Source of the DNA: Anaerolineae bacterium
GTDB lineage: Bacteria > Chloroflexota > Anaerolineae > SpSt-313
Assembly: GCA_023511475.1 (NCBI GenBank)
Contig: JAIMBM010000001.1
Location: forward strand, 1-40,257
Direction of reading: 5' to 3'
DNA length: 40,257 nt
Both the position numbers and the translations under genes were made by a program. Under the pieces are notes generated by a model that was not told the origin of the DNA, searched no databases, and was given only the letters and a program-made list of their open reading frames with translations. This document shows, in pieces, positions 1 through 37,251 of this stretch (position 1 is its first letter; every line of letters begins with the position of its first letter).

Positions 1-13
1 CGTTCCTGCTGCG

Positions 14-22
14 TGCTATAGT
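14..22 (+). promoter_or_regulatory. Candidate extended -10 element (TGcTATAGT); any -35 would lie off the window
   Basis: tgctatagt at 14-22. Only 12 nt separate the hexamer from the ATG at 35 and no GGAGG lies between, suggesting a leaderless or near-leaderless transcript. Confidence 0.35.
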
Positions 23-34
23 GGGACTCCCGCG

Positions 35-1210
35 ATGAGCGACAGGTCCGCTGCTGTCATTCCCGATCGCCCGTCGTTCAAGGCCTCCGAGGTCTGCGAG
101 CTGCTGGGCATCCAGCCCTACGTCCTGCGCACGTGGGAGAACGAGTTCAAGAACCTCGGCGTGGCGAAGGCGGCCGGGGCCCCTCGCGTGTATCGGCGTC
201 GCGACGTGGAGCTGGCGCTGCGCATCAAGGCGCTCGTCTTCACGGACGGGCTGACACTGGCCGGCGCCCGGCGCCGGCTCGAGCAGGAGAATCTCCTGGT
301 GCCGCCGGCGACCGACGGCCAACAACTCGAACGGAAACGCAGGCTGTTCGAGGAGCGGGCGTGCTGCGACTATGGGCTTTTCCTGGGGGCCGGCGAGCAG
401 GCACTCCCCCGCCCCGAGGATGCCGCGGAGGCTGTCGGCCTCAAGTTGTACCTCACCCCGACCTTCGGGCCGCTCCGACTCGAGTCGTTGGGGGCACTCC
501 TCGCGATCTTCAGGAGCTGGCCGGCTGCGAGGCCCATTGCGGTGCATGCCGAGGGCATGAGCATGGCGGTCCCGATCCTGCTGGCGGAGCTCATGGGCAG
601 GCGCGTGCACCTGTGCCACGTGGCGCGCGCGGATGAGATCACGCTGGTGCGGGCAGCCAAGGAGCGCGGCGTGGCGGTGACCTGCGAGGTGGCGCCGCAT
701 CACCTGTACCTGACGCGCGAGGACGCCGGGGCCCTGGGCGCGCTCGGGCAGATGAAGCCACCGCTTGCCGGGGCCGAGGACGTGGATGCGCTGTGGCGTA
801 ACCTGGGTGTAGTGGATCTCGTGGCCTCGGATCACGCGCCGCACACCCTCGCCGAGAAGCAGAGTGCCCAGCCGCCTCCCGGCGTGCCGGGTGTGGAGAC
901 GATGCTCCCGCTCCTGGTCACTGCGGTCCACGAGGGCCGCCTGAGCGCGGACCGGCTCGTCGAGCTCCTGCGTGAGGGGCCGCAACGGGTGTATGGGGTG
1001 CGCGCCCCAGAGGCGACGGTCGAGATCGAGATCGGTGGACCCTTCGAGATACGGGCGGCCAACCTGCACACCCGATGCGGGTGGACGCCTTTCGAGGGGC
1101 GGCGGGTGAATGCACGGGTGCGGCGGGTAGTGCTGCGCGGCCGCACGGTGTTTGAGGATGGTCACGTCCTGGGCGGGCCCGGGTTCGGGCGCCAGCTTCG
1201 ACCTGGGTAG
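35..1210 (+). CDS. MerR-family HTH domain fused to an N-terminally truncated dihydroorotase-like (CAD-type amidohydrolase) domain
   Basis: Residues ~14-85 read as a MerR winged HTH ([24 protein letters not shown]...[15 protein letters not shown]...[11 protein letters not shown]). Residues ~96-391 are colinear with the C-terminal three quarters of a dihydroorotase ([68 protein letters not shown]). There is no His in the first ~110 residues, so the HxH metal motif is missing. Confidence 0.8.
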
Positions 1211-1260: not shown

Positions 1261-2238
1261 ATGGCTATGGTCAGGGCACCGATTTTCGCTCAACTGATGG
1301 CGAACACTAACAACGGGTTCTACCAGCAGGATATCATCTCGGTTCGCCAGTTCGACCGGGTCAAGCTGGACTATATCTTTGGCGTGGCCGAGGAGATGCG
1401 ACACATGGTCCAGCAGATCGGGTCCGCTGATCTGCTGCGGGGTCGGGTGCTTGCCAACCTCTTCTACGAGCCCTCGACGCGCACGAGTTCGTCCTTCATG
1501 GCGGCCATGCAGCGGCTCGGTGGCAGCGTGATTCCGATCAACGAGGTCCGCTACTCCTCCGTGACTAAAGGCGAGTCCCTGCCCGACACGGTGCGGACGC
1601 TGGAGTGCTACGCGGACATCATCGTGCTGCGCCATCCCGAAGTCGGATCGGCGCAGATTGCGGCGGACTATGCCTCCAAACCCGTCATCAATGCTGGCGA
1701 CGGCACGGGCGAGCATCCGACCCAGGCTCTGCTCGACCTGTTTACGATCCAGGAGGAGATCGGCCGGATCGACGGTCTGAAGGTAGCGATGGTGGGCGAC
1801 CTGAAGTACGGGCGCACCGTGCACTCGCTCACAAGGCTCCTGTCGCTCTTCAACGTCGAGTTGCTGTTTGTGTCTCCGGAGGTGCTGCGGCTCCCGCGGG
1901 AGTTGGTCGACGAGGTGCAGGCGAAAGGGCTGCCGTTCAGTGAGCATGAGGACGTCGCCAAAGTCGTGGCGGATGTGGACGTGCTCTACGTGACCCGTGT
2001 GCAGCGGGAGCGGTTCGAGGACGAGTCCCTGTACGAGAAGGTGAAGGACTGCTACGTTATCACGCCCGAACTCCTCAAGCGGGCAAAGGAGCGCATGATC
2101 GTCATGCACCCGCTGCCTCGCGTCAATGAGATCAGCTACGAGGTGGATAGGGACCCGCGCGCAGCCTATTTCCGGCAGATGGCGAACGGGATGTACATCC
2201 GCATGGCGCTGCTGGCGGCCGTGCTGGGGCGGGCGTGA
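1261..2238 (+). CDS. pyrB: Aspartate carbamoyltransferase catalytic chain
   Basis: STRTSSSF carbamoyl-phosphate motif, HPTQALLD and HPLPRV motifs. AAGGAGGGA RBS lies 4 nt upstream of the ATG. Confidence 0.95.
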
Positions 2239-2244
2239 GGGGCC

Positions 2245-3663
2245 ATGGCGTTCTTCACAGTGCTCGAGGAAGTGTCGAGGAGACGAGGGAGCCTCCTCTG
2301 TGTTGGCCTGGACCCTGATCGGCGGATCATGCCGGAGGCCTTTGCCCGCGAGTCGGAGCCGCTGTGGGCGTGGAACCGTGCTGTCATCGAGGCCACGGCC
2401 GCATACGTCTGCGCCTACAAGCCCAACATGGCGTTCTATGAGGCGGAGGGCGCAGCGGGGCTAGAGGTGCTGAGGCGAACGATCGACTGTGCGCACGCCC
2501 ATGGGACGCCGGTTATCCTGGACGCCAAACGTGCGGACGTTGCCCACAGTGCGGAGGCGTACGCTCGCGCCGCCTTTGAGGTGTGGGAGGCGGATGCCGT
2601 CACGGTGAACCCGTACCTGGGCCATGACGCCATCGGCGCCTTTGCCCGCTACGCTGACAAAGGCGTGTATGTGCTGTGCCACACGTCAAATCCAGGAGCC
2701 CGCGACCTCCAGGAGCGACGAACGGAGGGCAGGCCGCTTTACCTGGCCCTGGCCGAGATGGTCGCTCGCCTGAACACCGCGGGCAACCTCGGGCTGGTGG
2801 TCGGCGCGACCTATCCGGAGGCGCTCAGGGAGGTCAGGTCGATGGCGGTTGGTCTGCCCTTCCTGGTTCCGGGTGTCGGGGCACAGGGGGGCGAGGTCGA
2901 GCGTGCCGTCGCGGCCGGCCTGCGGGCGGACGGGGGTGGCCTCATTATCAGCGCTTCGCGGTCAGTGATCGGGGCGGAGGATTTCGGCGGCGCGGCGCGT
3001 GCGCTGCGGGACGCCATGGCGGCGGCGCGAGCCGCAACCCTGGGCAGGCCGCAGCACGAGGTGATTCCGGAGGACGCCCTGATCGTCGCCCTTCATGAGG
3101 CTGGCTGTGTCCGCCTTGGCGACTTTATGCTGCACTCGGGGCAGCGCTCGCCGATCTATCTGGACCTGCGCGTGCTGGTGTCGAGCCCAGACGTGCTGTG
3201 GCAGGTGGCGCGGGCGTATATCGGCCTGCTTGAGGGCCTCGGCTACGACCGCCTGGCAGCCATCCCCTATGCTGCACTGCCGATCGGGACCGCCGTGGCG
3301 CTGCTCGCGGACAGGCCGCTGGTGTATCCGCGTCTGGAAGCCAAGCAGTATGGAACCGCGCGGCGGATCGAGGGCACCTGGAACCCGGGGGAAAGGGTCG
3401 TGGTGCTCGATGACGTGATCACGACCGGCGCGAGCAAGCTGGAGGCGATCCGCCCGCTCGAGGAGAGTGGGCTTGTGGCGCGGGACATTGTGGTCCTCGT
3501 CGACCGTGGTCAGGGTGGACGGGAGGCGCTGGAGGCGGAGGGATATCGCGTGCATGCGCTTCTGACTCTGCGCCGGATTGTGGAGGTGCTCGCACGCCTG
3601 GGCCGCATCTCAGATGCTGACCGCGACCGGGTGACGGCGTTTCTGGAGGGCCAGAAGCCTTGA
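2245..3663 (+). CDS. pyrF/pyrE: Bifunctional orotidine-5'-phosphate decarboxylase (type 2, N-terminal) / orotate phosphoribosyltransferase (C-terminal)
   Basis: The N-terminal ~270 aa carry LCVGLDPD and ILDAKRADV type-2 ODCase motifs. The C-terminal ~190 aa carry the PRPP-binding loop VVVLDDVITTGASK and SPIYLDLR. It is a single uninterrupted 472-aa frame. Confidence 0.9.
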   Translation: MAFFTVLEEVSRRRGSLLCVGLDPDRRIMPEAFARESEPLWAWNRAVIEATAAYVCAYKPNMAFYEAEGAAGLEVLRRTIDCAHAHGTPVILDAKRADVAHSAEAYARAAFEVWEADAVTVNPYLGHDAIGAFARYADKGVYVLCHTSNPGARDLQERRTEGRPLYLALAEMVARLNTAGNLGLVVGATYPEALREVRSMAVGLPFLVPGVGAQGGEVERAVAAGLRADGGGLIISASRSVIGAEDFGGAARALRDAMAAARAATLGRPQHEVIPEDALIVALHEAGCVRLGDFMLHSGQRSPIYLDLRVLVSSPDVLWQVARAYIGLLEGLGYDRLAAIPYAALPIGTAVALLADRPLVYPRLEAKQYGTARRIEGTWNPGERVVVLDDVITTGASKLEAIRPLEESGLVARDIVVLVDRGQGGREALEAEGYRVHALLTLRRIVEVLARLGRISDADRDRVTAFLEGQKP

Positions 3664-4595
3664 GGGATGTGGGTCTCTCGGTCGAGCTGTGCGGCGTCCG
3701 CCTCCGCACCCCTTTCGTTCTTGCCGCCGGCGTGCTGGGGACTACGGCGGCCCTCCTTGAGCGGGTCGCACGGAGGGGGGCGGGTGCGGTGACGGCCAAG
3801 TCGTGCAGCGTGCGGCCGCGGCGGGGACACCCTAACCCGACGGTTCTGCCCTGGGAGGGCGGGCTCATCAATGCCGTCGGGCTGGCAAACCCCGGGGCGG
3901 CGGCGATGGTGGCCATCCTTGCCGACACCCGGCGCCGGCTCGCTCCTCTCGGTGTGCCGCTGATCGCCAGCGTGTTTGCCGAGGAGGCAGGCGGGTTCGG
4001 GGAGGTAGTGCGCATCCTCGAGGAGGCGGAGCCCGACTTTTACGAGGTGAATATCTCGTGTCCGAACGTCGCGGAAGAGCTCGGCCTGCCCTTCGCCGCC
4101 GATCCCGTGCAGGCGGCGCGGGCGACGGCTGCGGTTCGGGCGGCAACGCGCCGGCCGGTGATCGTCAAGCTCTCGCCGAACGTGGCCGATATCTGCGCGG
4201 TTGGCAGAGCGGTAGTGGACGCGGGCGCGGACGCGCTGGCCGCGATCAACACCCTCGGCCCGGGAATGCTCATCGACATCCGGGCGAGGACGCCGGTGCT
4301 GGCGAACCGGGTGGGCGGGCTCTCCGGGCCGGCCGTTCGGCCGGTAGCGGTGCGGTGCGTCTACGACCTGAGCCGGGCGGTGGCCGTGCCCATCATTGGT
4401 ATGGGGGGCGTAACGACGGGTGAGGATGCGGTGGAGATGATCATGGCCGGTGCGACCGCGGTGGGCGTGGGCTCGGCGTTCTACCAGCGGGGGATGGGCG
4501 TGCTCGAAGCCATGGCCGCGGAAATACGGGCCTTCATGCAGGAGCAGGGCTTTGGCTGCGTGTCGGAGATGAGGGGGCTGGCCCATGGCGCCTAG
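3660..4595 (+). CDS. pyrD: Dihydroorotate dehydrogenase, class 1B catalytic subunit
   Basis: NISCPN, GLSGPAVRPVA and IIGMGGV motifs. The TTG start overlaps the pyrF/E stop (TTGA). It is followed by pyrK. Confidence 0.9.
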   Translation: MRDVGLSVELCGVRLRTPFVLAAGVLGTTAALLERVARRGAGAVTAKSCSVRPRRGHPNPTVLPWEGGLINAVGLANPGAAAMVAILADTRRRLAPLGVPLIASVFAEEAGGFGEVVRILEEAEPDFYEVNISCPNVAEELGLPFAADPVQAARATAAVRAATRRPVIVKLSPNVADICAVGRAVVDAGADALAAINTLGPGMLIDIRARTPVLANRVGGLSGPAVRPVAVRCVYDLSRAVAVPIIGMGGVTTGEDAVEMIMAGATAVGVGSAFYQRGMGVLEAMAAEIRAFMQEQGFGCVSEMRGLAHGA

Positions 4596-5301
4596 CCCAC
4601 ATCGTGCCGGAAGGGTGGTCCGGGTCGAGCCAGCCGGCCATCGGGGTGTGACGATCGTCTCAGACATCCGGCTTTCTGCACGGCCTGGCCAGTTCGTCAT
4701 GCTCTGGGTACCGCGGGCGGACGAAAAGCCCTTCAGCCTGGTCGCGGACAATCCCCTGACGCTGGCCGTGGTCCCGGTCGGACCAGTTACCGGCCGACTC
4801 CAGCAGCTGCAGCCCGGCGACCCACTGTATGTGCGGGGGCCTCTGGGCCGGGGCTTCTCGTTGGATGGGCAGCGACCGCTCCTGGTGGCGGGTGGCAGCG
4901 GGGCTGCTCCGCTCGCCTTCCTCGCGAGCCGGCTTGCCGCGGCGGGCCGTGAGGTGACGGTGGCCCTCGGGGCGCGCTCCGCCGGCGAGCTGCTTCTGGT
5001 GGAGCGGTACCAGGCGGCCGCAGCGCGCCTGTGGATCACTACAGAAGACGGCAGCGCAGGGGAGCGGGGGCTCGTTGTGTCGGTCGCAGAGCGCCTGCTG
5101 GCCAATGGAGGGTGCGACCGCGTGTACGCCTGCGGTCCGGTGCCGATGCTCGAGCGGGTCGCGGCGCTGTGCCGGGAGTATGGGGTCCCCGGCGAGGCAA
5201 GCTATGAGGCCTATATGCGCTGCGGGATCGGCGTGTGTGGCTCTTGTGACCGGGGCGACGGCCTCCTCGTCTGCCGCGATGGGCCCGTGTTTGACCTGTA
5301 G
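4585..5301 (+). CDS. pyrK: Dihydroorotate dehydrogenase electron-transfer subunit (FAD / 2Fe-2S)
   Basis: C-terminal cluster motif MRCGIGVCGSC...LVCRDGPVF, KPFSL flavin motif and GGSGAAPL nucleotide-binding loop. It overlaps the pyrD end by 11 nt. Confidence 0.85.
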   Translation: MAPSPHRAGRVVRVEPAGHRGVTIVSDIRLSARPGQFVMLWVPRADEKPFSLVADNPLTLAVVPVGPVTGRLQQLQPGDPLYVRGPLGRGFSLDGQRPLLVAGGSGAAPLAFLASRLAAAGREVTVALGARSAGELLLVERYQAAAARLWITTEDGSAGERGLVVSVAERLLANGGCDRVYACGPVPMLERVAALCREYGVPGEASYEAYMRCGIGVCGSCDRGDGLLVCRDGPVFDL

Positions 5302-6433: not shown

Positions 6434-8566
6434 TTGGCCAAGCTCTTGCTCTTCGTGGCGTGGCCGGCGGTGCTGGTGGCCCTGGCAGTGCAGGCCTGGC
6501 GCACCGGCCCGGTCGGGGCGCTGAGGGCGCTTATGCAGGGGACGCTCTGGTATGATTCCGACCAGAGTGCGATCGGTGGCGCGGGGGCGCAGGCAGCGTT
6601 GGTTCTGGGGCACGGAGTGGGCCTGGCCTATCTCTGGCGCATCTCGGGCAGGAGCTATGAGCAGGCTGTGCCGCTCGGCCTGGCGTCGTCGGTGGCCCTG
6701 CTCCTGCCACAGCTGAGCGCGCTCTGGCGCCGCCGGGGTGTCGACGCAACGGTCTTGACGCCGCTGGTCGTGCCATACGGAGCGGGGCTCCTGCTGGGGC
6801 TGCATCTGCTGCCAGCGGCCGAGGGGTACACGCTGCTGCGTGTCTGCTGCGTGGCTGCCGCGGGCTATACGCTGCTGATACAGGCCGAGCGCTTCTGGCC
6901 GCACAGGGTGGCGGGGAGAGTGGTCCGCCCGGCGCCGCTCCTGCTGCTGGCTTTCACTGCGGTGTGGGCGCTGGCTGAGTACCTGGGTGGACGCACCCAT
7001 GGGGTGACCGGCAGCGACCCCTTCTGCTACGCGCAGATGGCCGTGGATATCGCCCGGCACGGCGATCCCCGGCATGTGTTCACGCTTTTCCCGGCAGTGA
7101 GTGAGCTGGGGATCCCCTGGTGGCCGATTGTGCACGTGGGGTACTATCCCCCGGGAGATGGCGGGACCTCGGCGACGGTGTGGCCTGTGGGCTGGCCGGC
7201 GCTCCTCGCCGTGGGGTACCTCTTCCTTGGCGAGATCGGTCTGTACGTGTGGGCACCATTGGCGGGGCTCCTTGTGCTCCTCGCTCTGGCAGGCCTGGTC
7301 CGGGAGGTCTGGCCCGAGCAGCGCGCACAGAGCCGCTGGCTGGGGCTGGCGCTCGGGGCACTGATCCTGGCTACATCGCAGGAGCAGGTGCTGCAGCTGC
7401 TCGTGCCGATGGCGGACGTGCCCGCGCAGCTGTTCACCGTACTGGCCGTGTGGCTGGCGCTTCGCGCCGGGAGGAGGGCGTCGTGGCCTGAGGCGCTGCT
7501 TGCGGGGATGGCACTGGGCGTGGCCTACGACATCCGCCATACGCAGGTCTTCCTGGCGCCGGCGCTGGCGGTCGCCCTCTGGTGGAAAGGGACGCTCAGG
7601 AGGACGCTCAGGCTTCTCGCTGCTGCGGCGGCGGGGGCGTGTCTCATGGCGCTGCCCGACCTCTGGTACCACGCAGCCGCCTTTGGCAGCCCGTGGCGGC
7701 CGGAGTCTCCGGAGCTCTGCCTCATCGGGGTGCGCTACTGGTGGGCGAATGCGCTGAGGATGGCCGTGGCAGCCGGGGGGCGGGCGGAGTTTGGCCTGCT
7801 CGTGCCGCTGTTGGGGTACGGCGCGTGGCGCCTATGGAAGGAGAACCGCAGGGGAGCGGCGGTCCTGGGCCTTTGGGTTCTGCTGAATGCCGGACCCCAG
7901 TTCCTCTATGGCCCGCTACGCTGGCGGGACCTCCTCGCGGTGGTGCCACCCCTGGCACTGTTTGCGGCCTACGGTGGGGTAGCGTTCCTCGCCTGGCTTC
8001 GTGCCAACCCGCAGCCGAGCTGGGCTCCAGGGTGCGCCGCCCTGGCGGTGGCCCTGGCGCTGACCCTCCGAGTGGGGATCATGCTGGAATGGCCACTGCG
8101 CGACTGCGAGCAAACCTTTGGGTACCTCTCGGCTGAGGAGCGGCGCGCGTTTGCCCTGCTCGGGGAGGTCACTGAGGAGGACGCGGTCATCGGCACGAGC
8201 CTCAACAGCGGCCCGGTCGAGCTCTATGCAGGCCGGGAGTCCTTTCGGCCGGGCGATTGGTCGCGAGGGGAGCTCGAGACCTTCTTGCGGGCTATGGAGC
8301 GGGCGGGAAGGCCAGTGTACATCATCGACGATGGGAACGAGCATGCGGCACTCGTCGTGTCCCTGATGGCCGAGGGGCGGCTTGAGCCAGTTCGGAAGCT
8401 GACCGTGCCGCTCTACGGTGACCGGGAGCAGCTGAGCGGGAGGCTCTATCGCGTCCGGCCGTTGCGCGAGGCCGCCGGGTCCGGCACGGAGACGGTGCCC
8501 GGGATGGGGTTATGCCCTTGCTCCTCCTCTTCCGCCGTGGTAGAATGGCGACCGGTTGTGGGCTAG
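6434..8566 (+). CDS. Large polytopic membrane protein with a C-terminal soluble domain; possibly a GT-C-fold (ArnT/PMT-like) glycosyltransferase
   Basis: TTG start 4 nt after an AAGGAG RBS. More than 10 hydrophobic segments, an early loop with GSDPFCYAQMAVDIARHG, and a non-membrane C-terminal ~120 aa. The functional call is weak. Confidence 0.55.
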   Translation: MAKLLLFVAWPAVLVALAVQAWRTGPVGALRALMQGTLWYDSDQSAIGGAGAQAALVLGHGVGLAYLWRISGRSYEQAVPLGLASSVALLLPQLSALWRRRGVDATVLTPLVVPYGAGLLLGLHLLPAAEGYTLLRVCCVAAAGYTLLIQAERFWPHRVAGRVVRPAPLLLLAFTAVWALAEYLGGRTHGVTGSDPFCYAQMAVDIARHGDPRHVFTLFPAVSELGIPWWPIVHVGYYPPGDGGTSATVWPVGWPALLAVGYLFLGEIGLYVWAPLAGLLVLLALAGLVREVWPEQRAQSRWLGLALGALILATSQEQVLQLLVPMADVPAQLFTVLAVWLALRAGRRASWPEALLAGMALGVAYDIRHTQVFLAPALAVALWWKGTLRRTLRLLAAAAAGACLMALPDLWYHAAAFGSPWRPESPELCLIGVRYWWANALRMAVAAGGRAEFGLLVPLLGYGAWRLWKENRRGAAVLGLWVLLNAGPQFLYGPLRWRDLLAVVPPLALFAAYGGVAFLAWLRANPQPSWAPGCAALAVALALTLRVGIMLEWPLRDCEQTFGYLSAEERRAFALLGEVTEEDAVIGTSLNSGPVELYAGRESFRPGDWSRGELETFLRAMERAGRPVYIIDDGNEHAALVVSLMAEGRLEPVRKLTVPLYGDREQLSGRLYRVRPLREAAGSGTETVPGMGLCPCSSSSAVVEWRPVVG
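8518..8546 (+). promoter_or_regulatory. Candidate promoter, TTGCTC-17 nt-(TGg)TAGAAT
   Basis: Extended -10 tggtagaat at 8538-8546 inside the 3' end of the upstream gene, ~35 nt before the likely start of the LuxR/Kelch gene. Confidence 0.35.
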
Positions 8567-8579
8567 GTCGGAGGTTGGC

Positions 8580-9896
8580 GTGGGAGACGCGACGGAGGAA
8601 ATGCTCAGCGAGCGGGAGTTGGAGATCCTCCGGCTTGTTGCGACAGGAGTGACCAACAACGAGATCGCTCTGCGCCTGATGATCAGCCCCCATACGGTCA
8701 AGGTTCACCTCCGCAACATCTTTGCCAAGATCGGCGTCCAGTCGCGCACGGAGGCGACCGTTGTCGCCATCCAGAGGGGTTGGGTGGAGGTGCCCGGCGC
8801 CGCGCCGGCAGGGGCTCTCGATCGGACTGGACGACGTCCGCCCCTCTCATGGGGGCGCCGCGGGTTTCTGGTGGCAGCGTTGGGCGGTGCGCTATCGCTG
8901 GCCTTCTGGTCTGCGCCCGCATCGCGCCTTTCCTCGCAAGAGGACGCCCTGAGCGACCGGGCGCCCGCGGGTGTGCCAGCCGACCCGGGCACTGTGCAGC
9001 GCTGGTCCGCCCGGGCTCCTCTGCCGGAGGCACGGGGCCGGTTCGGCTGTGCAGCCTTGGGTCAACGCATCTATGTGATCGCCGGCGAGACGCGCGCGGG
9101 CACGACCGACTCTGTTGACATCTATGAGCCTTCGGAGGATACCTGGCACGTCGGTGCGCGCAAGCCGACGGCGGTGGCCAATGTCGCCGCGGCGGTGATT
9201 GGCGATGAGGTTTATGTGCCCGGGGGCTATGACCGCGACGGCCGGGTGGTGGCCGGGTTGGAGGTCTACGCCCCGGAGAGCGACTCGTGGCGAACCGCGT
9301 GCCCCTTGCCGGCTCCTCGCTGTGGCTACGCGCTGGCGGCGACCGGAGGGCGTCTCTACCTCTTTGGGGGGTGGGACGGGAGCAGGTATGTTGCCGATGT
9401 GCTGATCTACGACCCTGAGGAGGATGCCTGGAGCGATGGTACGCCGCTGGGGAGGGCGCGGGGCTTTGCAGCAGCGGCGAGCTACGATGGGCGTATCTAT
9501 GTGGTGGGCGGATACGACGGAGTCAGCGAACTCGCGACGTGTGAGGTCTACGATCCCGGGCTTGAGGGGAGCGGCGAGTCGCCCTGGCGGACGGTGGCAG
9601 CGATGTCTCAGGCGAGGGGCGGGCTTGGCCTTGTCGTGGCAGGGACGCGCCTTTATGCCGTTGGCGGTGGCTGGAACGGCAACCTGGCTTACAACGAGAG
9701 CTATGACGTGGCGGGGGACCTCTGGCGGCCCTTCCCGAGCCCCGTCCTCGGGCGGTGGCGGACTCTGGGCGTGGCGGCAGTAGAGAACTCGCTGGGCACG
9801 ACGGTCTATGCCCTCGGCGGCTGGAGCGGTGACCTGCTGGCCATCAACCAGGCGTATCGGGCGGTGCTCCGTATCTTCCTGCCGAGCCTTGGCTGA
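8580..9896 (+). CDS. LuxR-type HTH / single transmembrane helix / Kelch-repeat beta-propeller protein
   Basis: N-terminus LSERELEILRLVATGVTNNEIALRLMISPHTVKVHLRNIFAKIGV (LuxR/GerE HTH). Hydrophobic helix GFLVAALGGALSLAFWSA. Then ~6 Kelch-like blades (RIYVIAGE, EVYVPGGYD, RLYLFGGWDG, RIYVVGGYDG, RLYAVGGGWNG). The GTG at 8580 has GGAGG 5 nt upstream. Alternative starts are 8556 and the ATG at 8601. Confidence 0.8.
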   Translation: MGDATEEMLSERELEILRLVATGVTNNEIALRLMISPHTVKVHLRNIFAKIGVQSRTEATVVAIQRGWVEVPGAAPAGALDRTGRRPPLSWGRRGFLVAALGGALSLAFWSAPASRLSSQEDALSDRAPAGVPADPGTVQRWSARAPLPEARGRFGCAALGQRIYVIAGETRAGTTDSVDIYEPSEDTWHVGARKPTAVANVAAAVIGDEVYVPGGYDRDGRVVAGLEVYAPESDSWRTACPLPAPRCGYALAATGGRLYLFGGWDGSRYVADVLIYDPEEDAWSDGTPLGRARGFAAAASYDGRIYVVGGYDGVSELATCEVYDPGLEGSGESPWRTVAAMSQARGGLGLVVAGTRLYAVGGGWNGNLAYNESYDVAGDLWRPFPSPVLGRWRTLGVAAVENSLGTTVYALGGWSGDLLAINQAYRAVLRIFLPSLG

Positions 9897-12428: not shown

Positions 12429-15413
12429 ATGAACTTTCAAGAAGCTATCATGCGCCTGCAGCAATACTGGGCGGAGCAGGGCTGCATCATCTGGCAGCCG
12501 CACAACGTCAAAGTCGGCGCGGGAACGATGAATCCGGGCACATTCCTGCGTGTGCTGGGACCCGAGCCGTGGCGGGTTGCCTACGTCGAGCCTTCTGTGC
12601 GGCCGGCGGACGGGCGGTACGGTGAGAACCCGAACCGCTGGGGGCAGTACTACCAGTTCCAGGTGATTCTGAAGCCCGACCCGGGCAATCCGCTGGAGCT
12701 GTATCTGGATAGCCTTCGTGCCCTGGGAATAGACCCGGCCCGCCACGACATCCGGTTTGTCGAGGACAACTGGCAGCAGCCGGCCCTCGGCGCCTGGGGC
12801 CTGGGGTGGGAAGTCTGGCTCAACGGGCAGGAGATCACGCAGTACACCTACTTCCAGCAGGCCGGTGGCGTTGACCTTTCCCCTGTCTCGGTGGAGATCA
12901 CCTACGGGCTTGAGCGCATCGTCATGGCGCTGCAGGATGTGCCGGTCTTTCAGGATATCCAGTGGCTCGATGGGGTCACCTATGGCGATGTGCTCTTCCG
13001 TGGCGAGGTGGAGCAATGTCGATACAACTTTGAAGCGGCCAGCATCGCGCGGCTGCGGGAGATGTATGACCTCTTCGAGGCCGAGGCGCGGAACGCACTG
13101 GACTCGGGCCTGGTTCTCCCCGCCTATGACTATGTGCTCCTCTGCTCGCACGTGTTCAACGTGCTGGATGCGCGCGGCGCCGTTGGCGTGACCGAGCGCG
13201 CAAGCTTTTTCGCGCGCATGCGCGACCTGGCTCAGGAGGTGGCGCAGACGTTCCTGGCGCAGCGGGCCGAAATGGGCTATCCGCTGGCGGCGCGCGGTTT
13301 CGGGGGAGCGCGGCTGCAACCGGTGCAGGAGGCAGTGGGGGCCCAGGCTCCGAAGGAGCCTCGCACCTTCCTGCTGGAGGTCGGCACGGAAGAGTTGCCG
13401 GCAGGGGACCTTGCGTTGGCGATTGACCAGCTCAGGAAGATGGTCCCGGAGGTCCTCAGAGACACGCGCCTGGAGCATGGAGAGGTGCGAGTCATGGGCA
13501 CGCCGCGCCGCCTGGTGGTCAGCGTGTCGGACGTTGCTCCGTTGCAGCCGGATAGCGAGCGGGTCATCAAGGGGCCTCCCGCGAGGGTCGCCTTCGATGA
13601 GCAGGGGCGGCCTACGCAGGCCGCGCTGGGCTTTGCGCGCAACAATGGGGTCCCGGTTGAGGCACTGCAGGTGCGCCGCTTCGAGGGGCGGGAGTACGTG
13701 GTTGCAGTGCACACCGAGCACGGACTGCCGGCGACGGAGGTCCTCGGGCCGGCGGTCGCGCAGTTGCTCGGCCAGCTGCGTTTTCCGCTGACGATGCGCT
13801 GGAACGGGACGGGTGTTGCCTTCTCCCGGCCGATCCGCTGGTTGGTGGCGATGCTCGGGGAGGCGACCGTGCCGTGCACCTTTGCCGGTGTGACCTCGGG
13901 CAGGGTGTCCCGGGGCATCCGAGCGGCGGGGTCGCCGGAGGTAGCGATACCCTCGGCAGAGGCCTACGAGGGGATCATGCGCGAACAGGGCATCATGCTG
14001 AGCTCCGAGGAGCGGCAGGCGGCCATCCTCGAGCAGGGGCGGCAGCTGGCTGGGGAGGTCGGCGGCCAGATGGTGGAGGACGCCGACCTGCTCGCCGAGG
14101 TGGCCAACATGGTCGAGTGGCCCACAGTGTTGCGAGGCAGCTTTGCCGAGGAGTACCTGCATCTTCCGGAGCCGGTGCTCATCTCAGTGATGAAGGAGCA
14201 TCAGCGATACTTTCCGGTCGCGGATGGTGGGCACCTGCTGCCCGCCTTTCTGGCGGTCGCCAACGGCGCCGAGCTGGACTGGGCCGCTGTGCGACACGGC
14301 AACGAGGATGTACTGCGCGCCAGGTACGCGGATGCGGCTTACTTCTACCGGTCCGACCGTTCGCAGTCTCTGGCCGACTTTGTCCCGCGTCTCGAGACGC
14401 TTACCTTCCAGACGGACCTCGGGTCCATGCTCGACAAGACTCACCGTCTGGAGCGGCTCGTGCCCGTCCTTGCGCGGCTTGTGGGTCTGAGCGCTGCGGA
14501 GATGGTCGCAGCGCAGAGGGCGGCTTTTCTGTGCAAGGCAGACCTCGCGAGCAAGATGGTCGTTGAGCATACCTCCCTCCAGGGGGTGATGGGCGGGCAC
14601 TATGCCCGGCACTCGGGGGAGCTGGAGCCCGTGGCCCGGGCCATCGAGGAGCACTACCTGCCTCGGGGGCTTGGCGACCGGCTGCCCGGGAGCGGTCCGG
14701 GGATGGTCCTCGCCCTGGCGGACAGGTTCGACAGCCTTGTGGGGCTCTTTGCCGTGGGGTTGGCGCCTACCGGATCGTCGGATCCCTACGCGCTCCGGCG
14801 GGCTGCGCTGGGCATTGTGCAGATTCTGCTGGGTCGAGAGGTGTCGCTCTCTCTGTGTGGGGCCGTGGATGCTGCAGCGAGCGTACAACCGGTGACTGTG
14901 GGGCCAGAGGTGCGCGGGGAGGTCTTGTCCTTCTTGCAGCAGCGGCTGCGGGGCTTCCTGCTGGATGAAGGGCTGCGCTACGACGTTGTCGACGCCGTCC
15001 TGGCCGAGCAAGGGGATGACCCCCTCAGGGCGGTGCGCTCGGCCAGAGCCCTGCAGGAGGCGGTACGGGAGGAAGATTGGGGCCGCATTCTGGTGGCCTA
15101 TGCACGTGCTGTGCGGATCACGCGTGACCTCGAGACCCGGTATGAGATGCAGCCACGGCGCTTCACCGAGCCGGAGGAGAGGGCACTGTATGAGGCCTAC
15201 CGGAAGGCTGCAGAGATGGTCTCGGCGCGGCCAGAGGTCGCGGTGCTCGTCCGCGCCCTGCGGGAGCTGGTCGATCCCATAACGCGGTTCTTTGACAGGA
15301 TTCTGGTGATGACCGAGGACCCGGACGTGCGCGCGAATCGCTTGGCCCTGCTGCAGGGTATCTCGGCGCTGCCAAAGGGAATAGCCGACCTCAGCCGCCT
15401 TGAGGGGTTCTAG
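12429..15413 (+). CDS. glyQS: Glycine--tRNA ligase, fused alpha (GlyQ) and beta (GlyS) subunits
   Basis: The first ~290 aa are GlyQ-like ([47 protein letters not shown]). From ~aa 312 ([13 protein letters not shown]) onward it is a full GlyS-like beta chain. One frame with no internal stop. Confidence 0.95.
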
Positions 15414-31296: not shown

Positions 31297-31299
31297 CGA

Positions 31300-31718
31300 G
31301 GTGGAGATGGCGGGAATCGAACCCGCGTCCAGAAAGTTCGACCAGCGATGTACTACAAGCTTAGTCGGCGTTTTGGATCTCACCCTCCCGGACCTCCACC
31401 GACCGAGTTCCCGGAGGGCCAGCCGATCCCGCCGGCTCATCGCCTGCGGCTTGAGCCCGCCTATCGGCGTCGACAGGCCGCACCCTGCTGTGCCTGGCGC
31501 CCGTCCCCGAGCCAGCGGGGTGCACCCGGGGCGGGCGTGATCACGCTAGGTGATCGGGCGCCGTCTGCGCCCTAGCCGCCGCTTAGGCAGCCATGGCGTA
31601 GGCGTACGCCGGAGTCTGTGCTCTGTTGGCACTTGTCGTTTTGCCCCTGATTTGCGAGGTTGGGGCACCTCGGCTTGCAATCGCGGGCCAGCCCTCCCTG
31701 TCGAGACCTGTCATCCCC
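31300..31718 (-). ncRNA. ssrA: Transfer-messenger RNA (one-piece tmRNA)
   Basis: The minus strand starts GGGGAUGACAGGUCUCGACAGGG and ends GGACGCGGGUUCGAUUCCCGCCAUCUCCACC. The acceptor stem GGGGAUG/CAUCUCC has the G3:U wobble. An internal tag frame at 31630-31586 reads ANRAQTPAYAYAMAA, followed by UAA (31585-31583). Only CC of the CCA end is encoded. Confidence 0.92.
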
Positions 31719-31900: not shown

Positions 31901-33247
31901 CTAGCGCTGCAGCGTATACCCAAAGGTCTCCGGCCCGAGGTCGATGCCGACAGAGCGGATACGGTCGTAGAACTTGGGGCGGACGCCGGTAGGCTCCAGC
32001 GAGCCGACGATCCGCCCATCGCGCATGCCCTGCTCCTTGAAGACGAAGATGTCCTGCAGGAGTATGGTGTCTCCTTCCATGCCAGATACCTCCGACACCT
32101 GCACCACCTTGCGCGAGCCGTCGCGAAGGCGCTGCACGTGCACGATGAGGTTGATCGCCGACGCGATCTGCTCGCGGATGGCCCGCAGGGGCAGGTCCAT
32201 CCCTGCCATGAGGACCATCGTCTCCAGGCGGCGCAGCGTATCCCGCGGGCTGTTGGAGTGGGCCGTGGTCAGTGAACCATCGTGGCCGGTGTTCATCGCC
32301 TGTAGCATGTCCAGTGCCTCGCCGCCACGCACCTCACCAACGACGATGCGGTCCGGGCGCATGCGCAGGCCGTTGATCACGAGCTGCCGGATCGTGATCT
32401 GGCCCTTTCCCTCCAGGTTGGGCGGCCGCGCCTCGAGGGTGACGACGTGCTCCTGCCGCAACTGCAGCTCGGCCGCATCCTCAATGGTGATGATACGCTC
32501 GTCCGCGGGCAGGAAGGAGGACAAGACGTTCAGAAGGGTCGTCTTCCCCGCGCCCGTGCCACCGGAGATGACGATGTTCAGACGCGCCCGCACACAGGCC
32601 CGGATAAAGTCCAGGAACTCGCTGGTGCACGTGCCGACGCGAACCAGGTCATCGACGCCGAGAGGTACGCGGTAGAACTTGCGCACCGTCAAGGCGGGGC
32701 CGACCAGTGACAACGGCGGAATGATCGCGTTGATTCGCGAGCCATCGGGGAGGCGCGCGTCGACCATGGGTGACGCCTCATCGATGCGCCGGCCAAGCGG
32801 CGCGACGATGCGCTCGATGATGCGCAGGAGGTGGGCCTCATTGTCGAAGGTCAGTGCCGTGCGCTCAATCTTGCCGTTGCGCTCTATGTAGACCTGGTCG
32901 GGACCGTTGACCATGATCTCGGTGATGGTGTCATCGCGCAGCAACCGGTCGAGAGGCCCATAGCCCAGGATCTCGGCGATGGCGCGCTCGAGCAGCTCCT
33001 CGCGCTCGCTGCGGCCGAGGACAACGCCCTGTTCGCGCACGACCTCGGTGCACACGTCCGCAATCTTGCGTCGGATCATCTCGCTGTCGGAGAGGTCTTC
33101 ATCCGAGCGGAGTGAGGCGACAACCCGGTCCCGGACCAACGTCACGAGCTGTCGATGGGTGTCGGGCGCGATGCGGCCAGCAGGCGCTATCTCAGGAGCC
33201 GAGGGTTCTGCCGCAGCTGCGGGAATGCGTGTGCCTCGTATCAGCAT
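31901..33247 (-). CDS. cpaF: Tad pilus secretion ATPase (CpaF/TadA family)
   Basis: Walker A ISGGTGAGKTTLLN, ERIITIEDAAEL, RMRPDRIVVGEVRG and GHDGSLTTAHSNS motifs. Confidence 0.9.
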   Translation of the reverse strand: MLIRGTRIPAAAAEPSAPEIAPAGRIAPDTHRQLVTLVRDRVVASLRSDEDLSDSEMIRRKIADVCTEVVREQGVVLGRSEREELLERAIAEILGYGPLDRLLRDDTITEIMVNGPDQVYIERNGKIERTALTFDNEAHLLRIIERIVAPLGRRIDEASPMVDARLPDGSRINAIIPPLSLVGPALTVRKFYRVPLGVDDLVRVGTCTSEFLDFIRACVRARLNIVISGGTGAGKTTLLNVLSSFLPADERIITIEDAAELQLRQEHVVTLEARPPNLEGKGQITIRQLVINGLRMRPDRIVVGEVRGGEALDMLQAMNTGHDGSLTTAHSNSPRDTLRRLETMVLMAGMDLPLRAIREQIASAINLIVHVQRLRDGSRKVVQVSEVSGMEGDTILLQDIFVFKEQGMRDGRIVGSLEPTGVRPKFYDRIRSVGIDLGPETFGYTLQR

Positions 33248-33311
33248 GCTTGCTCATTCCTCGCCTCGTAATGCTTTGGGCACCGAGCTTGTCAGCTTCC
33301 CGCCATGTGGC

Positions 33312-34235
33312 CTATCGCAAGGCCAATGTCTCGACGATGGCCGGCAGGGCGGGCCCGAGGATCACCGCCAGAGTGGCCGGCATGATGAAAAAGACCATGG
33401 GAAAGAGCATCTTGAGCGGCGCCGCGCGGGCGAGCTCTTGCGCACGCTGACGCCGCCGCACCCGGAGCTGCTCCGCCTGGGCGTGCAAGGTATCCGATAT
33501 GCTGAAGCCAAGCTGGTCCGCCTGCAGCAGCACCGCTACCAGCGAGGACAGATCCGGCACGTCCGTCCGGTACACCAGATTCTGCATCGCCTCTCGCCAG
33601 CTTGCGCCCACGCCGATCTCCATGACGGCCCGATGGAACTCGCGGGCAAGGGCATGATCCCAGCTCTGGGCGATGCGCAGGAAGGCGCTCTCGAGACCGA
33701 GGCCCGCATCGACGCACACTGTGAGCATGTCCAGCGCATCCGGGAGCGCGAGGGTCATGGCCTTGCGGCGCTGCGCCATACGTCGACGGAGGAGGAACCT
33801 CGGCAACTGGTAAGAGAGCAGGGCACCCGCTGCAGCTATCGGAAGGAGCCGCGGCAGCGGCGCGTCCGACCTCAGGAGCAGGCTGGCAATGAGGGTCGTC
33901 CCTGCAAGGGCTGTGAGCAGGCAGAGGCCGAGAAAGTCCAGCGGGGTGAGACCAAGGGGCGAGCCGGCAATGAGTAGATCGCGCCGCAACCTCTCCAGGT
34001 TCGTCTTGGGCGAGAGGTTGCCAAGCCAGCGCAGCACGCGGTTGACGAGCGGCTGGAGCACGCGCTCGGCAAAGGGTGTACGGAGCTCCAGCGTTGGCGC
34101 GAGAAGGTCGCCTGCGAGCAAGAGCTCGGCACGGCGCACGGTGCGGTGCTGCTCATGCTCAATGCGTATGGCGATCCAGATCACCCCAAAGGCCAGGGCC
34201 GCGACGACCGCCACGAGGGCCGCGATCTGCGTCAC
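33312..34235 (-). CDS. tadC: Type II secretion system F-family inner-membrane protein (TadC-like by order)
   Basis: GspF/T2SSF-like layout: N-terminal TM, a cytoplasmic helical domain (LPDALDMLTVCVDAGLGLESAFLRIA) and C-terminal TMs. GTG start after GAAGGAGG. Confidence 0.75.
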   Translation of the reverse strand: MTQIAALVAVVAALAFGVIWIAIRIEHEQHRTVRRAELLLAGDLLAPTLELRTPFAERVLQPLVNRVLRWLGNLSPKTNLERLRRDLLIAGSPLGLTPLDFLGLCLLTALAGTTLIASLLLRSDAPLPRLLPIAAAGALLSYQLPRFLLRRRMAQRRKAMTLALPDALDMLTVCVDAGLGLESAFLRIAQSWDHALAREFHRAVMEIGVGASWREAMQNLVYRTDVPDLSSLVAVLLQADQLGFSISDTLHAQAEQLRVRRRQRAQELARAAPLKMLFPMVFFIMPATLAVILGPALPAIVETLALR

Positions 34236-34250
34236 CGGTCGTGACCTCCT

Positions 34251-35204
34251 TCATACCTCGATGCGAGTGAGCCTCTGAGCTAGCACGAACCCGACTAACT
34301 CCAGGAGCAGGGCAACGATCGGGATGATCACCCACGGAGGCTGGAACATGCCCATCATGTACCTCGGACTCATGATCGAGAGCATGACCCCCAGAAAGAT
34401 CGGCAGCGCAACCAGCAGGTAACAGGTGAGACGCTGCTGGGTCGTGAGGACGCGGACCTCGCCATTCAGCCGTATGCGCTCGCGGATCGTCTCCGCGATC
34501 TTTTCCAGGATGTCGGAGAGGTTGCCGCCGACCTCGTGGCTGATGTTGATCGCCGTGACCATCAGCTGGAGATCGTCTGTCTCCATACGTCGCACCAGGT
34601 TCCCGAGCGCTTCAGACTGGGAGAGGCCAAAGCCGATCTCACGCACGACCCGGGCGAACTCTTCCGAGGCCGGCGGGCCCAGCTCCCTGCTGGCCAACTC
34701 CAGAGCGTTGAGGAGGCCATGCCCGCTGCGGAGCGATCCCACCATGAGGACCAGCACGTCGACCAGTTGGGCCTGGAAGGCGGCCAGGCGCCTTCGGCGC
34801 CTGCGCTCTAGCAGCAGCCAGGGAACCGCAAGGCCAAGGAGCAGCCCGGCAGCGAAGGAAAGCGCATGCCCGCCCAGCGCATAGCCAAGGACGCCACCGG
34901 CCAGGCCCGTAGCCAGCATGGTGGCAAGGAACTCGGTCACGGTGAGGCGCAGGTTGCTCTGTGCCAGCGACAGTGCCATGCGCCTGGCAATCTCCTGGCC
35001 CGCCAGCGCCCGGTCGAGGGCGGCCATCAACCGCTGGAGCGGCCTTTGACCTTCTGAGGGCTGCTGTCTGCGACTGCCGGCCGCCGCGTAGGCCTGTAGC
35101 CGGGCCGCTATCGTCGGCGACGGGCCGGCCACGAGATGAATTCCCCGAAAGACCGCAAGGATCGACAGGGCGCTGGCAGCACCAGCGATCAGAGCGGTAT
35201 CCAT
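34251..35204 (-). CDS. tadB: Type II secretion system F-family inner-membrane protein (TadB-like by order)
   Basis: QLVDVLVLMVGSLRSGHGLLNALE...GFGLSQSEAL T2SSF motif region. The ATG at 35204 follows GGGGAGGTG and lies 1 nt after the tadZ stop. The longer track ORF overlaps tadZ. Confidence 0.75.
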   Translation of the reverse strand: MDTALIAGAASALSILAVFRGIHLVAGPSPTIAARLQAYAAAGSRRQQPSEGQRPLQRLMAALDRALAGQEIARRMALSLAQSNLRLTVTEFLATMLATGLAGGVLGYALGGHALSFAAGLLLGLAVPWLLLERRRRRRLAAFQAQLVDVLVLMVGSLRSGHGLLNALELASRELGPPASEEFARVVREIGFGLSQSEALGNLVRRMETDDLQLMVTAINISHEVGGNLSDILEKIAETIRERIRLNGEVRVLTTQQRLTCYLLVALPIFLGVMLSIMSPRYMMGMFQPPWVIIPIVALLLELVGFVLAQRLTRIEV

Positions 35205-35205
35205 G

Positions 35206-36423
35206 TCAACACCTCCCCGAGCACAGTGCCGGTTCGCGCGGGGCTTTGAGGCTGCGCCCGGGCATGGCCTCCGCGAGGCCCGCCGAGATGGCAGCGACAT
35301 GGCGCGCAACCGGGCTGCGGGCATGGCTCAGCACGAACGGAAGGCCCCGGTTGGCGCTGTAGGTGACGAGCCGCACATCGTCCGGCACGGTGTGGGTCAC
35401 TTTGGCTCCAAGCACGCTTTCGATAGCGGGGCGATCCAGCCCACCCGGCAGCGGGTAGCGGTTCAGGATCAGGAGGATACGCTCTGGGGGCAGACCCACC
35501 GCCTTCGCCTGCTCGAGAAACAGGCCCACGCCTCGCAGGGCCGCAAGCTCGGGGGTGAACACGAGCAAGACGACGTCGGCAAGCTCCACCGATACGGCCA
35601 CCCACTCGGCGATCCCGCTGGCGGCATCTACGACGACGAACGGTCGCAGCCGACGGAGCGTGAGCAGTGTCCTGCGCAGCCCGCGGTGCCCATCGTTGCG
35701 ACTCCGGCCGCTTGGCAGCAGCAGAACCTCCAGCCCGCTCTCGTGGGGTGTCAGGAATGAGGTGATGTCGTCCGGATCCAGCTCCTCCAATCTCTCGGCG
35801 AGCACCGTGCCATCCTGTGCCGGGTGGAGGTTGAGCAGCACATCCGCTGTTGCCGTGCGAGCACCGGCATCCACCAGTACCGTCTGGACACCGCCTTGCC
35901 AGCACAGGGACGCGGCGCAGTTGACGGCGATGGTGCTGGCGCCGACGCCTCCTTTGCTGCCACACACGGCGATGATCTTGCCCATGCTCTCGCCGCGCAG
36001 GTCGAGCGCTGCCTCGATGCGGGCCGCCAACTCGGCTGGATCAGGCGGCTTCACCAGGTAGTCAAAGGCACCAGCCCGGAGGCTGGCCACTCTTCCGCTC
36101 ACACCGGCGTCGTCTCCCAGCACGATGATCGGGGTCGAGGTGGCATCGGCACTCCCGCTCAGAAGCCTGCAGAACTCGGCACCGGTCATATCGGGCAGGT
36201 CCAGGTCCACAAGAATGGCATCCGGCAGCAGCATGCGCCTTGCCGACAGGCCCTCCCAGCCTGTGCGAACAGCCTCGATATCCCACCATGTCGGGTCCAG
36301 GGCACTGCGGATGCTGGCGTCGGTGCACTCGTCACCGACGACAAGCACTCGCCTGCGAAGGGGCCGGGAGGCACCGGGTGTGCCGGTTGACCTCCCGTCG
36401 CCTGGTGAGGGACGGCTCGTCAT
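35206..36423 (-). CDS. cpaE: TadZ/CpaE-like pilus assembly protein: N-terminal receiver (REC) domain plus ParA/MinD-type ATPase
   Basis: REC-like VLVVGDE...AILVDLDLPDMTG...PIIVLG...AFDYLVKP. Deviant Walker A IIAVCGSKGGVGAST. The ATG at 36423 forms an ATGA overlap with the cpaB stop; 36438 is the alternative start. Confidence 0.8.
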   Translation of the reverse strand: MTSRPSPGDGRSTGTPGASRPLRRRVLVVGDECTDASIRSALDPTWWDIEAVRTGWEGLSARRMLLPDAILVDLDLPDMTGAEFCRLLSGSADATSTPIIVLGDDAGVSGRVASLRAGAFDYLVKPPDPAELAARIEAALDLRGESMGKIIAVCGSKGGVGASTIAVNCAASLCWQGGVQTVLVDAGARTATADVLLNLHPAQDGTVLAERLEELDPDDITSFLTPHESGLEVLLLPSGRSRNDGHRGLRRTLLTLRRLRPFVVVDAASGIAEWVAVSVELADVVLLVFTPELAALRGVGLFLEQAKAVGLPPERILLILNRYPLPGGLDRPAIESVLGAKVTHTVPDDVRLVTYSANRGLPFVLSHARSPVARHVAAISAGLAEAMPGRSLKAPREPALCSGRC

Positions 36424-37223
36424 GGTGTACCCTGCCATCGCGTCCAGTAGTGCTGCAGGACATAGCTGCCATCGACCGGGACCAGATCGAAGAGACCCGC
36501 CGCTGCGGGGCTGCGCAGCACGAGGTCGGGGGCCGCCCCGGCATCGCGGAAGAACTTGATGGCCAGCGCATCCTGTGGATCAACAGCCAGAAGGATGGCC
36601 TCCGGACGCCCACGCTGTGCCGCACCCAGCCCCGCGGGCAGCGGCGAGGATGAGGGGCCCGCCTGCTGGGCCGGCTCGGCGTATACGACCTCGGCTACCT
36701 GAAGGTCCTGAAGCAGACACAGAGTGTTGAGGCCCTCCGCAGCCTCCGGCTGGACGCGTCCGAGATCGAGGCTGAAAAGCAGGTCCACACGGTCGCCAGG
36801 CCTGACGATCCCCGCAGTGTTCAGAAGGTCCTGAGCGGGGAAGGCCACCATGACCTTGTCCGGATCCATAGCAAAGGCCGCCCTTGGGCCGACATAGTCG
36901 GGGGCGATCAGGCGGTCACGGAGGATCTGCTCACCACGGGCGATGGCCGCCGTGGTCAACTGGCCCACAGCCTCCCGCGGATGGCTGAGACTGCTCTCCA
37001 GCGCGAGGGTGGCGGGGACCTCCCGAAGCGCCAGGTCGCCCTCCTCGATGAGCGTGTGGGGCGGCAAGTCGCGGGCGGCGACGAGCACCTGAAGACCAGC
37101 CGGCGTGTGCGAGGCCCTCTGGAGAGCCGTAGCGCGCTGCACGGCGACATAGGTGAGAATGCCGGCGACTGCAGCCAGCACGAGACCAGAGGCAAACCAC
37201 AGCAAGCCTCTTCGATGGGTCAA
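36420..37223 (-). CDS. cpaB: Flp pilus assembly protein CpaB/RcpC-like (TM plus SAF domain)
   Basis: N-terminal TM LLWFASGLVLAAVAGILTYVAV and SAF-like VLVAARDLPPHTLIEEGDLALREVP. The TTG at 37223 is 7 nt after GGAGG and downstream of the tadG stop. The track start at 37310 would overlap tadG by 59 nt. Confidence 0.75.
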   Translation of the reverse strand: MTHRRGLLWFASGLVLAAVAGILTYVAVQRATALQRASHTPAGLQVLVAARDLPPHTLIEEGDLALREVPATLALESSLSHPREAVGQLTTAAIARGEQILRDRLIAPDYVGPRAAFAMDPDKVMVAFPAQDLLNTAGIVRPGDRVDLLFSLDLGRVQPEAAEGLNTLCLLQDLQVAEVVYAEPAQQAGPSSSPLPAGLGAAQRGRPEAILLAVDPQDALAIKFFRDAGAAPDLVLRSPAAAGLFDLVPVDGSYVLQHYWTRWQGTP

Positions 37224-37251
37224 CGTCACACCTCCGCTCGTGGATTTGGGC

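Follow-up and report, generated by a model that had tools for sequence, protein, structure and literature searches.

The window, that is, the whole stretch of DNA analyzed here (40,257 nt), is an entire contig of a metagenome-assembled genome (MAG) of an Anaerolineae bacterium. Its first gene is a 391-aa open reading frame (ORF) with an ATG start on the forward strand (35–1210), and the deposited sequence was confirmed to contain this frame. The product is identical (100% identity) to the NCBI protein MCL6429224.1 (P0391), which is recorded as [quoted passage not shown]. Downstream of the ORF follow pyrB, a fused pyrF-pyrE, pyrD, and pyrK, so that the ORF heads a pyr gene cluster, as had been stated in the original prediction. 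The ORF starts 34 nt from the contig end, and only these 34 nt lie upstream of it. The features of this part of the window are listed below.

1–34 (+): upstream region of a merR gene of foreign type with a putative extended −10-like box, TGcTATAGT, at nt 14–22 (match to locus L104)
35–298 (+): codons 1–88 of a stand-alone gene of the MerR family, forming a complete winged helix-turn-helix (HTH) module (Pfam MerR_1; merR of L104)
298/299 (no strand): breakpoint, where fusion codons 88/89 correspond to native pyrC codons 48/49 (blastn)
299–1210 (+): codons 49–351 and stop codon of an ordinary CAD-like Anaerolineae pyrC (DNA of L001 and L004; CAD dihydroorotase in the PDB)
1261–2238 (+): pyrB, aspartate carbamoyltransferase (OTCace_N and OTCace; syntenic in all relatives)
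2245–3663 (+): fused pyrF-pyrE ORF, 472 aa (OMPdecase at residues 17–253)
3660–4595 (+): pyrD (DHO_dh)
4585–5301 (+): pyrK (DHODB_Fe-S_bind and NAD_binding_1)

The pyrF-pyrE product (MCL6429226.1, encoded on the same contig as MCL6429224.1) consists of an N-terminal OMP decarboxylase and a C-terminal phosphoribosyltransferase-like part, for which the Pribosyltran matches were weak or faint in the orthologues. This ORF is kept at 470–472 aa in all related loci. The domain order of the animal UMP synthase is the reverse of that seen here. Domain annotation of the ORFs on the contig revealed no second dihydroorotase (DHOase) gene.

The dihydroorotase half and related pyrC loci

Residues 89–389 of the fusion protein were collinear with the DHOase domain of human CAD (chain residues 54–357; E = 5e-88 in a PDB search), in agreement with the CAD-like remainder that had been predicted from the sequence. 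The NCBIfam dihydroorotase models were matched in their C-terminal halves only, all of them under the curated cutoffs; the score for pyrC_multi (182 bits) stayed below its cutoff of 279 bits because only positions 190–411 of the 412 profile positions were matched. According to the alignment with CAD, the ligands K137 (Kcx1556), H171 (H1590), C194/H195 (C1613/H1614), E218 (E1637), and D266 (D1686) have been kept. The fusion protein shows in this respect a feature of DHOases, namely the carboxylated lysine together with the later His/His/Asp ligands, and the predicted retention of these positions (K137, H171, H195, and D266) was borne out. In human CAD, His1471 and His1473 form the HxH motif of the metal center on barrel strand β1 (PMC9856072). 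Both residues are without counterpart in the fusion protein, whose first His is residue 171, and HxH was absent from all six frames of nt 1–330. Two earlier observations, that the first ~110 residues contain no His and that no other frame of nt 1–330 encodes an HxH-bearing segment, are hereby confirmed. The HxH region (D11, H13, and H15 in the intact protein) was invariant in 30 relatives.

The best 120 of 5,666 relatives of the whole protein matched the DHOase part only, and almost all of them were stand-alone proteins of ~350 aa. Among the matches listed, the closest full-length relative was P0002 (351 aa; GCA_020725765.1), whose N-terminus includes GVLDMPNNVPPVTDGQQ and whose residues 49–351 were 93% identical to residues 89–391 of the fusion protein. 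Both genes share the operon context (pyrB, pyrF-pyrE, pyrD, and pyrK), but the window copy lacks residues 1–48 of P0002 and has 88 MerR residues instead. Stand-alone Anaerolineae-type DHOases, P0002–P0120 among them, make up a very large metagenome family (5,666 matches). These Anaerolineae enzymes of ~350 aa are unusually CAD-like, with P0002 being 48% identical to the animal CAD DHOase domain over 303 aa.

To define the missing part, a structure model was made for the intact orthologue P0002 (AlphaFold; pLDDT 94.7, pTM 0.93). Residues 1–48 of this model comprise a strand of the β-subdomain (residues 2–7), β1 with D11, H13, and H15 (10–14), α1 (27–36), and β2 (41–44), which precedes P46-N47 of the M-P-N motif; R17 also lies within this segment. 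Judged by the model, the fusion protein lacks the β-subdomain strand, β1, α1, and β2, which leaves an incomplete barrel with a quarter of its strands gone.

The dN/dS ratio of the 303 remaining pyrC codons was 0.17 in comparison with L001 (the locus of P0002) and 0.08 in comparison with L004, a closely related locus. The neighboring genes had ratios of 0.03 (pyrB), 0.17 (pyrFE), 0.10 (pyrD), and 0.12 (pyrK). Only three substitutions in the DHOase remnant were specific to the window, and relaxed or altered selection, which was looked for by means of dN/dS, was not found. These values show that the remnant has been under normal purifying selection and has experienced neither decay nor adaptation.

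The gene order in L001 is the same as in the window and consists of pyrC, pyrB, pyrF-pyrE, pyrD, pyrK, an AIRS-like gene, and a gene for a 710-aa membrane protein. In L001, pyrC is preceded by three M42 peptidase genes. Homology between the window and L001 (blastn) started sharply at nt 299, equivalent to pyrC codon 49, and extended as one collinear block to the end of the locus compared (nt 11,214; at least 10.9 kb with 91.8% identity). The homology also started at nt 299 in L004 and L105–L110 and at nt 311 in L003 (nine loci including L001, retrieved from NCBI, ENA, Logan, and JGI). An intact pyrC (…LDMPNN) behind M42-peptidase genes was present in all of the eight loci that cover the 5′ end of the gene, and merR was found upstream of pyrC in none of the related loci. 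Relatives with a full-length pyrC at this locus, which the original prediction had named among the observations that would speak against its own reading, do exist.

The DNA identity of the pyrC part was 93% to L001 and 96.7% to L004, and related loci ranged from 84 to 97%. L004 is a 1.1-kb JGI contig that extends 45 nt past the breakpoint as normal pyrC. Across this position L004 encodes …ALAGGITGVLDMPNN followed directly by VPPATDGQQ, whereas the window encodes ten residues of the MerR half in front of the same VPPATDGQQ. Native pyrC codons 33–48 encode …GGITGVLDMPNN. An M42 peptidase of the type found as native upstream neighbor (MCL6431184.1; P0396) is encoded on a separate contig of 5,164 nt, which, judging from the accession numbers, probably belongs to the same MAG. 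In the relatives, 211–388 nt separate pyrC from the last of the M42 peptidase genes (L001, 5571–5957; L105, 2064–2366), and this spacer could hold the true control region of the pyr operon. The start of pyrC was called differently among the relatives, resulting in proteins of 351 aa or 382 aa.

The MerR half and the singularity of the fusion

Residues 16–84 were matched by Pfam MerR_1 (PF13411) with 45.4 bits at a cutoff of 21.6 bits (E = 9e-12), which confirms that the single 391-aa frame begins with a MerR-type HTH. The fusion protein possesses the N-terminal winged HTH that characterizes the MerR family, with 80–95% identity to stand-alone members. The family comprises stand-alone MerR proteins of about 155–230 aa, and none of the best 120 matches to the MerR part in 5.8 billion clustered proteins exceeded 167 aa. 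When aligned with 10 members of the family, the window sequence follows them through …ARRRLEQE and then departs in the variable linker. The conserved C-terminal helix of the family (R.RL..VRRGL..IL..L), a post-HTH element that probably serves dimerization, is absent from the fusion protein.

An Acidobacteriota-type der-linked MerR protein of 230 aa (P0339) ranked among the 150 best matches in 1.84 billion representatives. Up to residue 85, it and the fusion protein differ at only four positions; beyond this point P0339 diverges and continues for 145 residues more. The contig of P0339 (L104) had 91.8% DNA identity to the window over nt 11–289, and the 24 bases upstream of the ATG (nt 11–34) were identical to those upstream of the L104 merR (GCGTGCTATAGTGGGACTCCCGCG), so that the box upstream of the gene matches as well; the homology to this merR is over by nt ~298. 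The window copy differs from P0339 in that it lacks the C-terminal helix (R..L..VRRGL..IL) and is not preceded by der. The closest Acidobacteria merR genes (L079 and L006) are likewise preceded by a GCGTGCTATA(C/G)T box, and other family members have a TATACT box before merR. Based on its sequence and position, the box at nt 14–22 may be the promoter of merR.

In L104, the complete 230-aa merR follows 81 nt after der (EngA). The Der protein of L104 shares 82% identity with its counterpart from an Acidobacteria MAG and 66–79% identity with Der of many other genomes, mostly from Acidobacteriota/Vicinamibacterales. Among 25 named genomes, 18 have der directly upstream of the merR homologue, and the closest named genomes are Acidobacteriota. 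These matches indicate that nt 1–298 represent the native 5′ end of an Acidobacteriota-type merR gene, including its promoter-like box. The exact donor of nt 1–298 was not found, the best match being L104 with 92% DNA identity, and der is absent from the window contig. Small der-linked merR genes behind a conserved TATACT/TATAGT box are widespread in Acidobacteriota loci (L079–L099, L104, L005, and L006).

The original prediction had considered that a deletion or an assembly artefact could have joined a MerR gene to pyrC. A deletion fusing merR and pyrC, had they been neighbors in the ancestor, would be expected to leave just such a scar, an in-frame join from which the 3′ half of merR and the 5′ end of pyrC are missing. 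However, what lies upstream in the relatives is a set of three M42 peptidase genes without any merR, and this merR family natively follows der. The synteny of the related loci contradicts a deletion between adjacent merR and pyrC genes, to which we assign next to no probability. This part of the suggestion was abandoned in view of the M42 peptidases upstream, whereas the artefact part gained support from the Acidobacteriota-type MerR at the contig end.

Proteins combining MerR and DHOase were detected neither among the best 120 matches to the whole protein nor among the best 120 matches to the MerR part (both in 5.8 billion clustered proteins), and in the search of 1.84 billion representatives the 150 best matches included no protein with both parts. 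A 28-mer spanning the junction had no exact match in genome_contigs or metagenome_contigs. A literature search on MerR plus dihydroorotase fusions yielded nothing relevant. The same fusion, which was sought in related genomes as had been proposed, was not recovered in the protein and contig searches, and it appears from these comparisons to be a one-off singleton.

These results bear on the two functional readings that had been proposed. According to them, the protein would have evolved into a one-component regulator, in which a MerR HTH is combined with a DHOase-derived sensor of carbamoyl-aspartate or dihydroorotate to control the pyr operon, or into a non-catalytic partner that docks to ATCase like Pseudomonas PyrC′. 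An N-terminal HTH with a C-terminal ligand-binding domain does follow the logic of one-component systems, the gene is located at the head of the pyr cluster, and the metal and substrate ligands farther along the sequence have been retained. Yet there was no second example among the best matches in 5.8 billion clustered proteins and 1.84 billion representatives, and relatives at 84–97% DNA identity carry a plain pyrC. Furthermore, the DHOase part cannot be told apart from the relatives' enzyme (three private substitutions; dN/dS 0.08–0.17), and the MerR part is devoid of the conserved C-terminal helix of its family and stems from another phylum.

A comparison with known inactive DHOase-like proteins points in the same direction. 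The PDB search also matched the DHOase-like domain of fungal CAD (PDB 5nnl; E = 1.4e-28), which, like PyrC′ and the fusion protein, has a DHOase fold without catalytic competence. PyrC′ and the fungal domain possess a complete barrel with degenerate ligands and are conserved in that state. The window shows the opposite pattern: the remaining ligands are intact, but the barrel is truncated by the removal of β1, β2, α1, and the β-subdomain strand, so that two barrel strands and not just ligands are lost. An inactive state that is conserved among relatives, as would be typical of PyrC′, was not observed, as all relatives covering the 5′ end have a full-length, active-type gene at the locus. We thus regard an evolved regulator or a PyrC′-like pseudoenzyme as very improbable, and both functional readings were not supported. 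There is an exceedingly slim chance that a functional capture took place, in which an Anaerolineae strain placed the promoter and HTH of an acidobacterial der-linked merR in frame on the pyrC remnant, with the DHOase part forming the dimer and sensing carbamoyl-aspartate or dihydroorotate to regulate pyrB, pyrFE, pyrD, and pyrK downstream, and with DHOase activity supplied elsewhere in the genome. In that case, which carries the same exceedingly slim chance, the protein would be the first MerR sensor of pyrimidine intermediates that derives from an enzyme.

Each half on its own belongs to a known family as an unremarkable member, one being the stand-alone CAD-like DHOase of Anaerolineae and the other the small der-linked MerR of Acidobacteriota, and the composite fails defining features of both. 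As it possesses no HxH motif, no full barrel, and no post-HTH helix, it was filed as a chimeric contig and not as a new protein architecture.

Origin of the junction

The lineage affinity of the contig switches at the junction. The sequence up to nt 298 is of the Acidobacteriota der-merR type, and the remainder is Anaerolineae according to the source names of its relatives. The merR/pyrC junction (298/299) is located 298 nt from the contig end, and the MerR-derived piece makes up exactly these terminal 298 nt. Composition did not separate the two sides (GC3 of 0.90 vs. 0.83 ± 0.03; codon-usage likelihood within range).

We consider it highly likely that the fusion is a cross-phylum (inter-genome) chimera formed at a MAG contig end, most likely through an artefact of assembly, because a short piece from another phylum, about one fragment long, is found at the extreme contig end; because the join interrupts a housekeeping gene of which every relative covering this part, a near-identical population included, has an intact copy; because the join is unique to this assembly; because the remnant is evolutionarily indistinguishable from a working enzyme; and because the native upstream neighbor MCL6431184.1 is encoded on a separate contig, probably of the same MAG. 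Chimeric contigs of metagenomes and MAGs have been benchmarked by metaMIC (PMC9661791) and are targeted by GUNC (PMC8201837), and inter-genome translocation was the commonest type of misassembly in metagenome benchmarks (PMC9661791). The window resembles such misassembled contigs in several respects: its lineage affinity changes abruptly at one point, the break lies within a gene that is intact in the relatives covering the site, the foreign sequence is confined to a short stretch at the end, the junction was not reproduced in other assemblies, and the relatives reaching the site are continuous across it.

It differs from them in that no long shared k-mer is visible at its junction. The codons of the window at this site are GAG CAG GAG AAT CTC CTG / GTG CCG CCG GCG (the slash marks the junction). 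The L104 merR has GAG CAG GAG CGC GTG CTG GAG CCG GTT GCG at the equivalent site, and the L004 pyrC reads ATG CCG AAT AAT / GTG CCG CCG GCG. The bases common to both parents amount to about G.GCCG at most, with the donor side judged from the 92%-identical L104, and a long shared k-mer was not visible against this nearest merR. The shared bases are too few, and a simple de Bruijn k-mer collapse is therefore unlikely, which counts against a chimera. The kept reading frame and a cut just past the HTH module would also be expected of a real domain fusion and count against a chimera, too.

Such short microhomology is typical of illegitimate recombination, and a real junction of recent and non-adaptive origin has to be weighed here, in which illegitimate recombination or the capture of cross-phylum DNA swapped the pyrC 5′ end for a merR fragment. 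The deposited 391-aa frame is intact and has its own promoter-like box and ATG, and the absence of decay fits a very recent event. The resulting fusion would be pseudogene-like, and its product would be catalytically dead and probably misfolded. However, by chance a junction would come this close to a contig end (298 nt) for about 1.5% of the positions of a 40-kb contig, the size of the foreign piece corresponds to roughly one sequencing fragment, and the event would have destroyed the sole pyrC observed in a pyr operon that is otherwise intact and conserved. Moreover, a population with 96.7% identity (L004) has the normal sequence, and the junction occurred in no other assembly searched. A recombination event of this kind is unlikely in our assessment.

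If the junction is instead a chimeric contig end, as we favor, the true gene would be a CAD-like Anaerolineae pyrC of the ordinary stand-alone kind, of which the contig covers codon 49 onward. The contig end would have been lengthened during assembly by 298 nt, approximately the length of one read or fragment. The added piece would originate from an Acidobacteriota genome of the same sample and would comprise the promoter-like region and the first 88 codons of a merR that follows der. The join would be in frame by chance (1 in 3) and would meet no stop codon, with the frame remaining open because stops are rare in sequence of 70% GC, and gene callers would then report a 391-aa “MerR family regulator”. 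We infer that the join arose during library preparation or assembly and not in a cell, and assume that it came about through a fragment or read that was chimeric and extended an end of low coverage. A normal PyrC is to be expected in the source organism, which almost certainly has no MerR-DHOase regulator.

The MerR-DHOase fusion is probably not a real biological feature and as such of little significance. In practical terms, caution is advised with the public record MCL6429224.1 (“MerR family transcriptional regulator”), which is probably a cross-phylum chimera. Where a new domain architecture occurs only once and lies no more than a few hundred bases from the end of a MAG contig, a comparison with syntenic relatives should precede any interpretation.

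Other features of the contig

Several features farther along the contig were recorded as well. A 994-aa ORF (12429–15413, +) encodes a fused glyQ-glyS, i.e., the alpha and beta parts of glycyl-tRNA synthetase, with a DALR domain. A protein of 446 aa (8556–9896, +) combines an N-terminal GerE/LuxR-type HTH with a Kelch-repeat beta-propeller and is conserved in L001. Genes for tRNAs were not found on the contig. A tmRNA gene is located at 31299–31718 on the reverse strand (Rfam RF00023, 147.7 bits) and encodes the tag peptide ANRAQTPAYAYAMAA. On the same strand, a Tad/Flp-type pilus cluster (31901–38208, −) comprises genes for a T2SSE ATPase, two T2SSF proteins, a response-regulator-plus-ParA/MinD-like protein, and one TadE/G-like protein.
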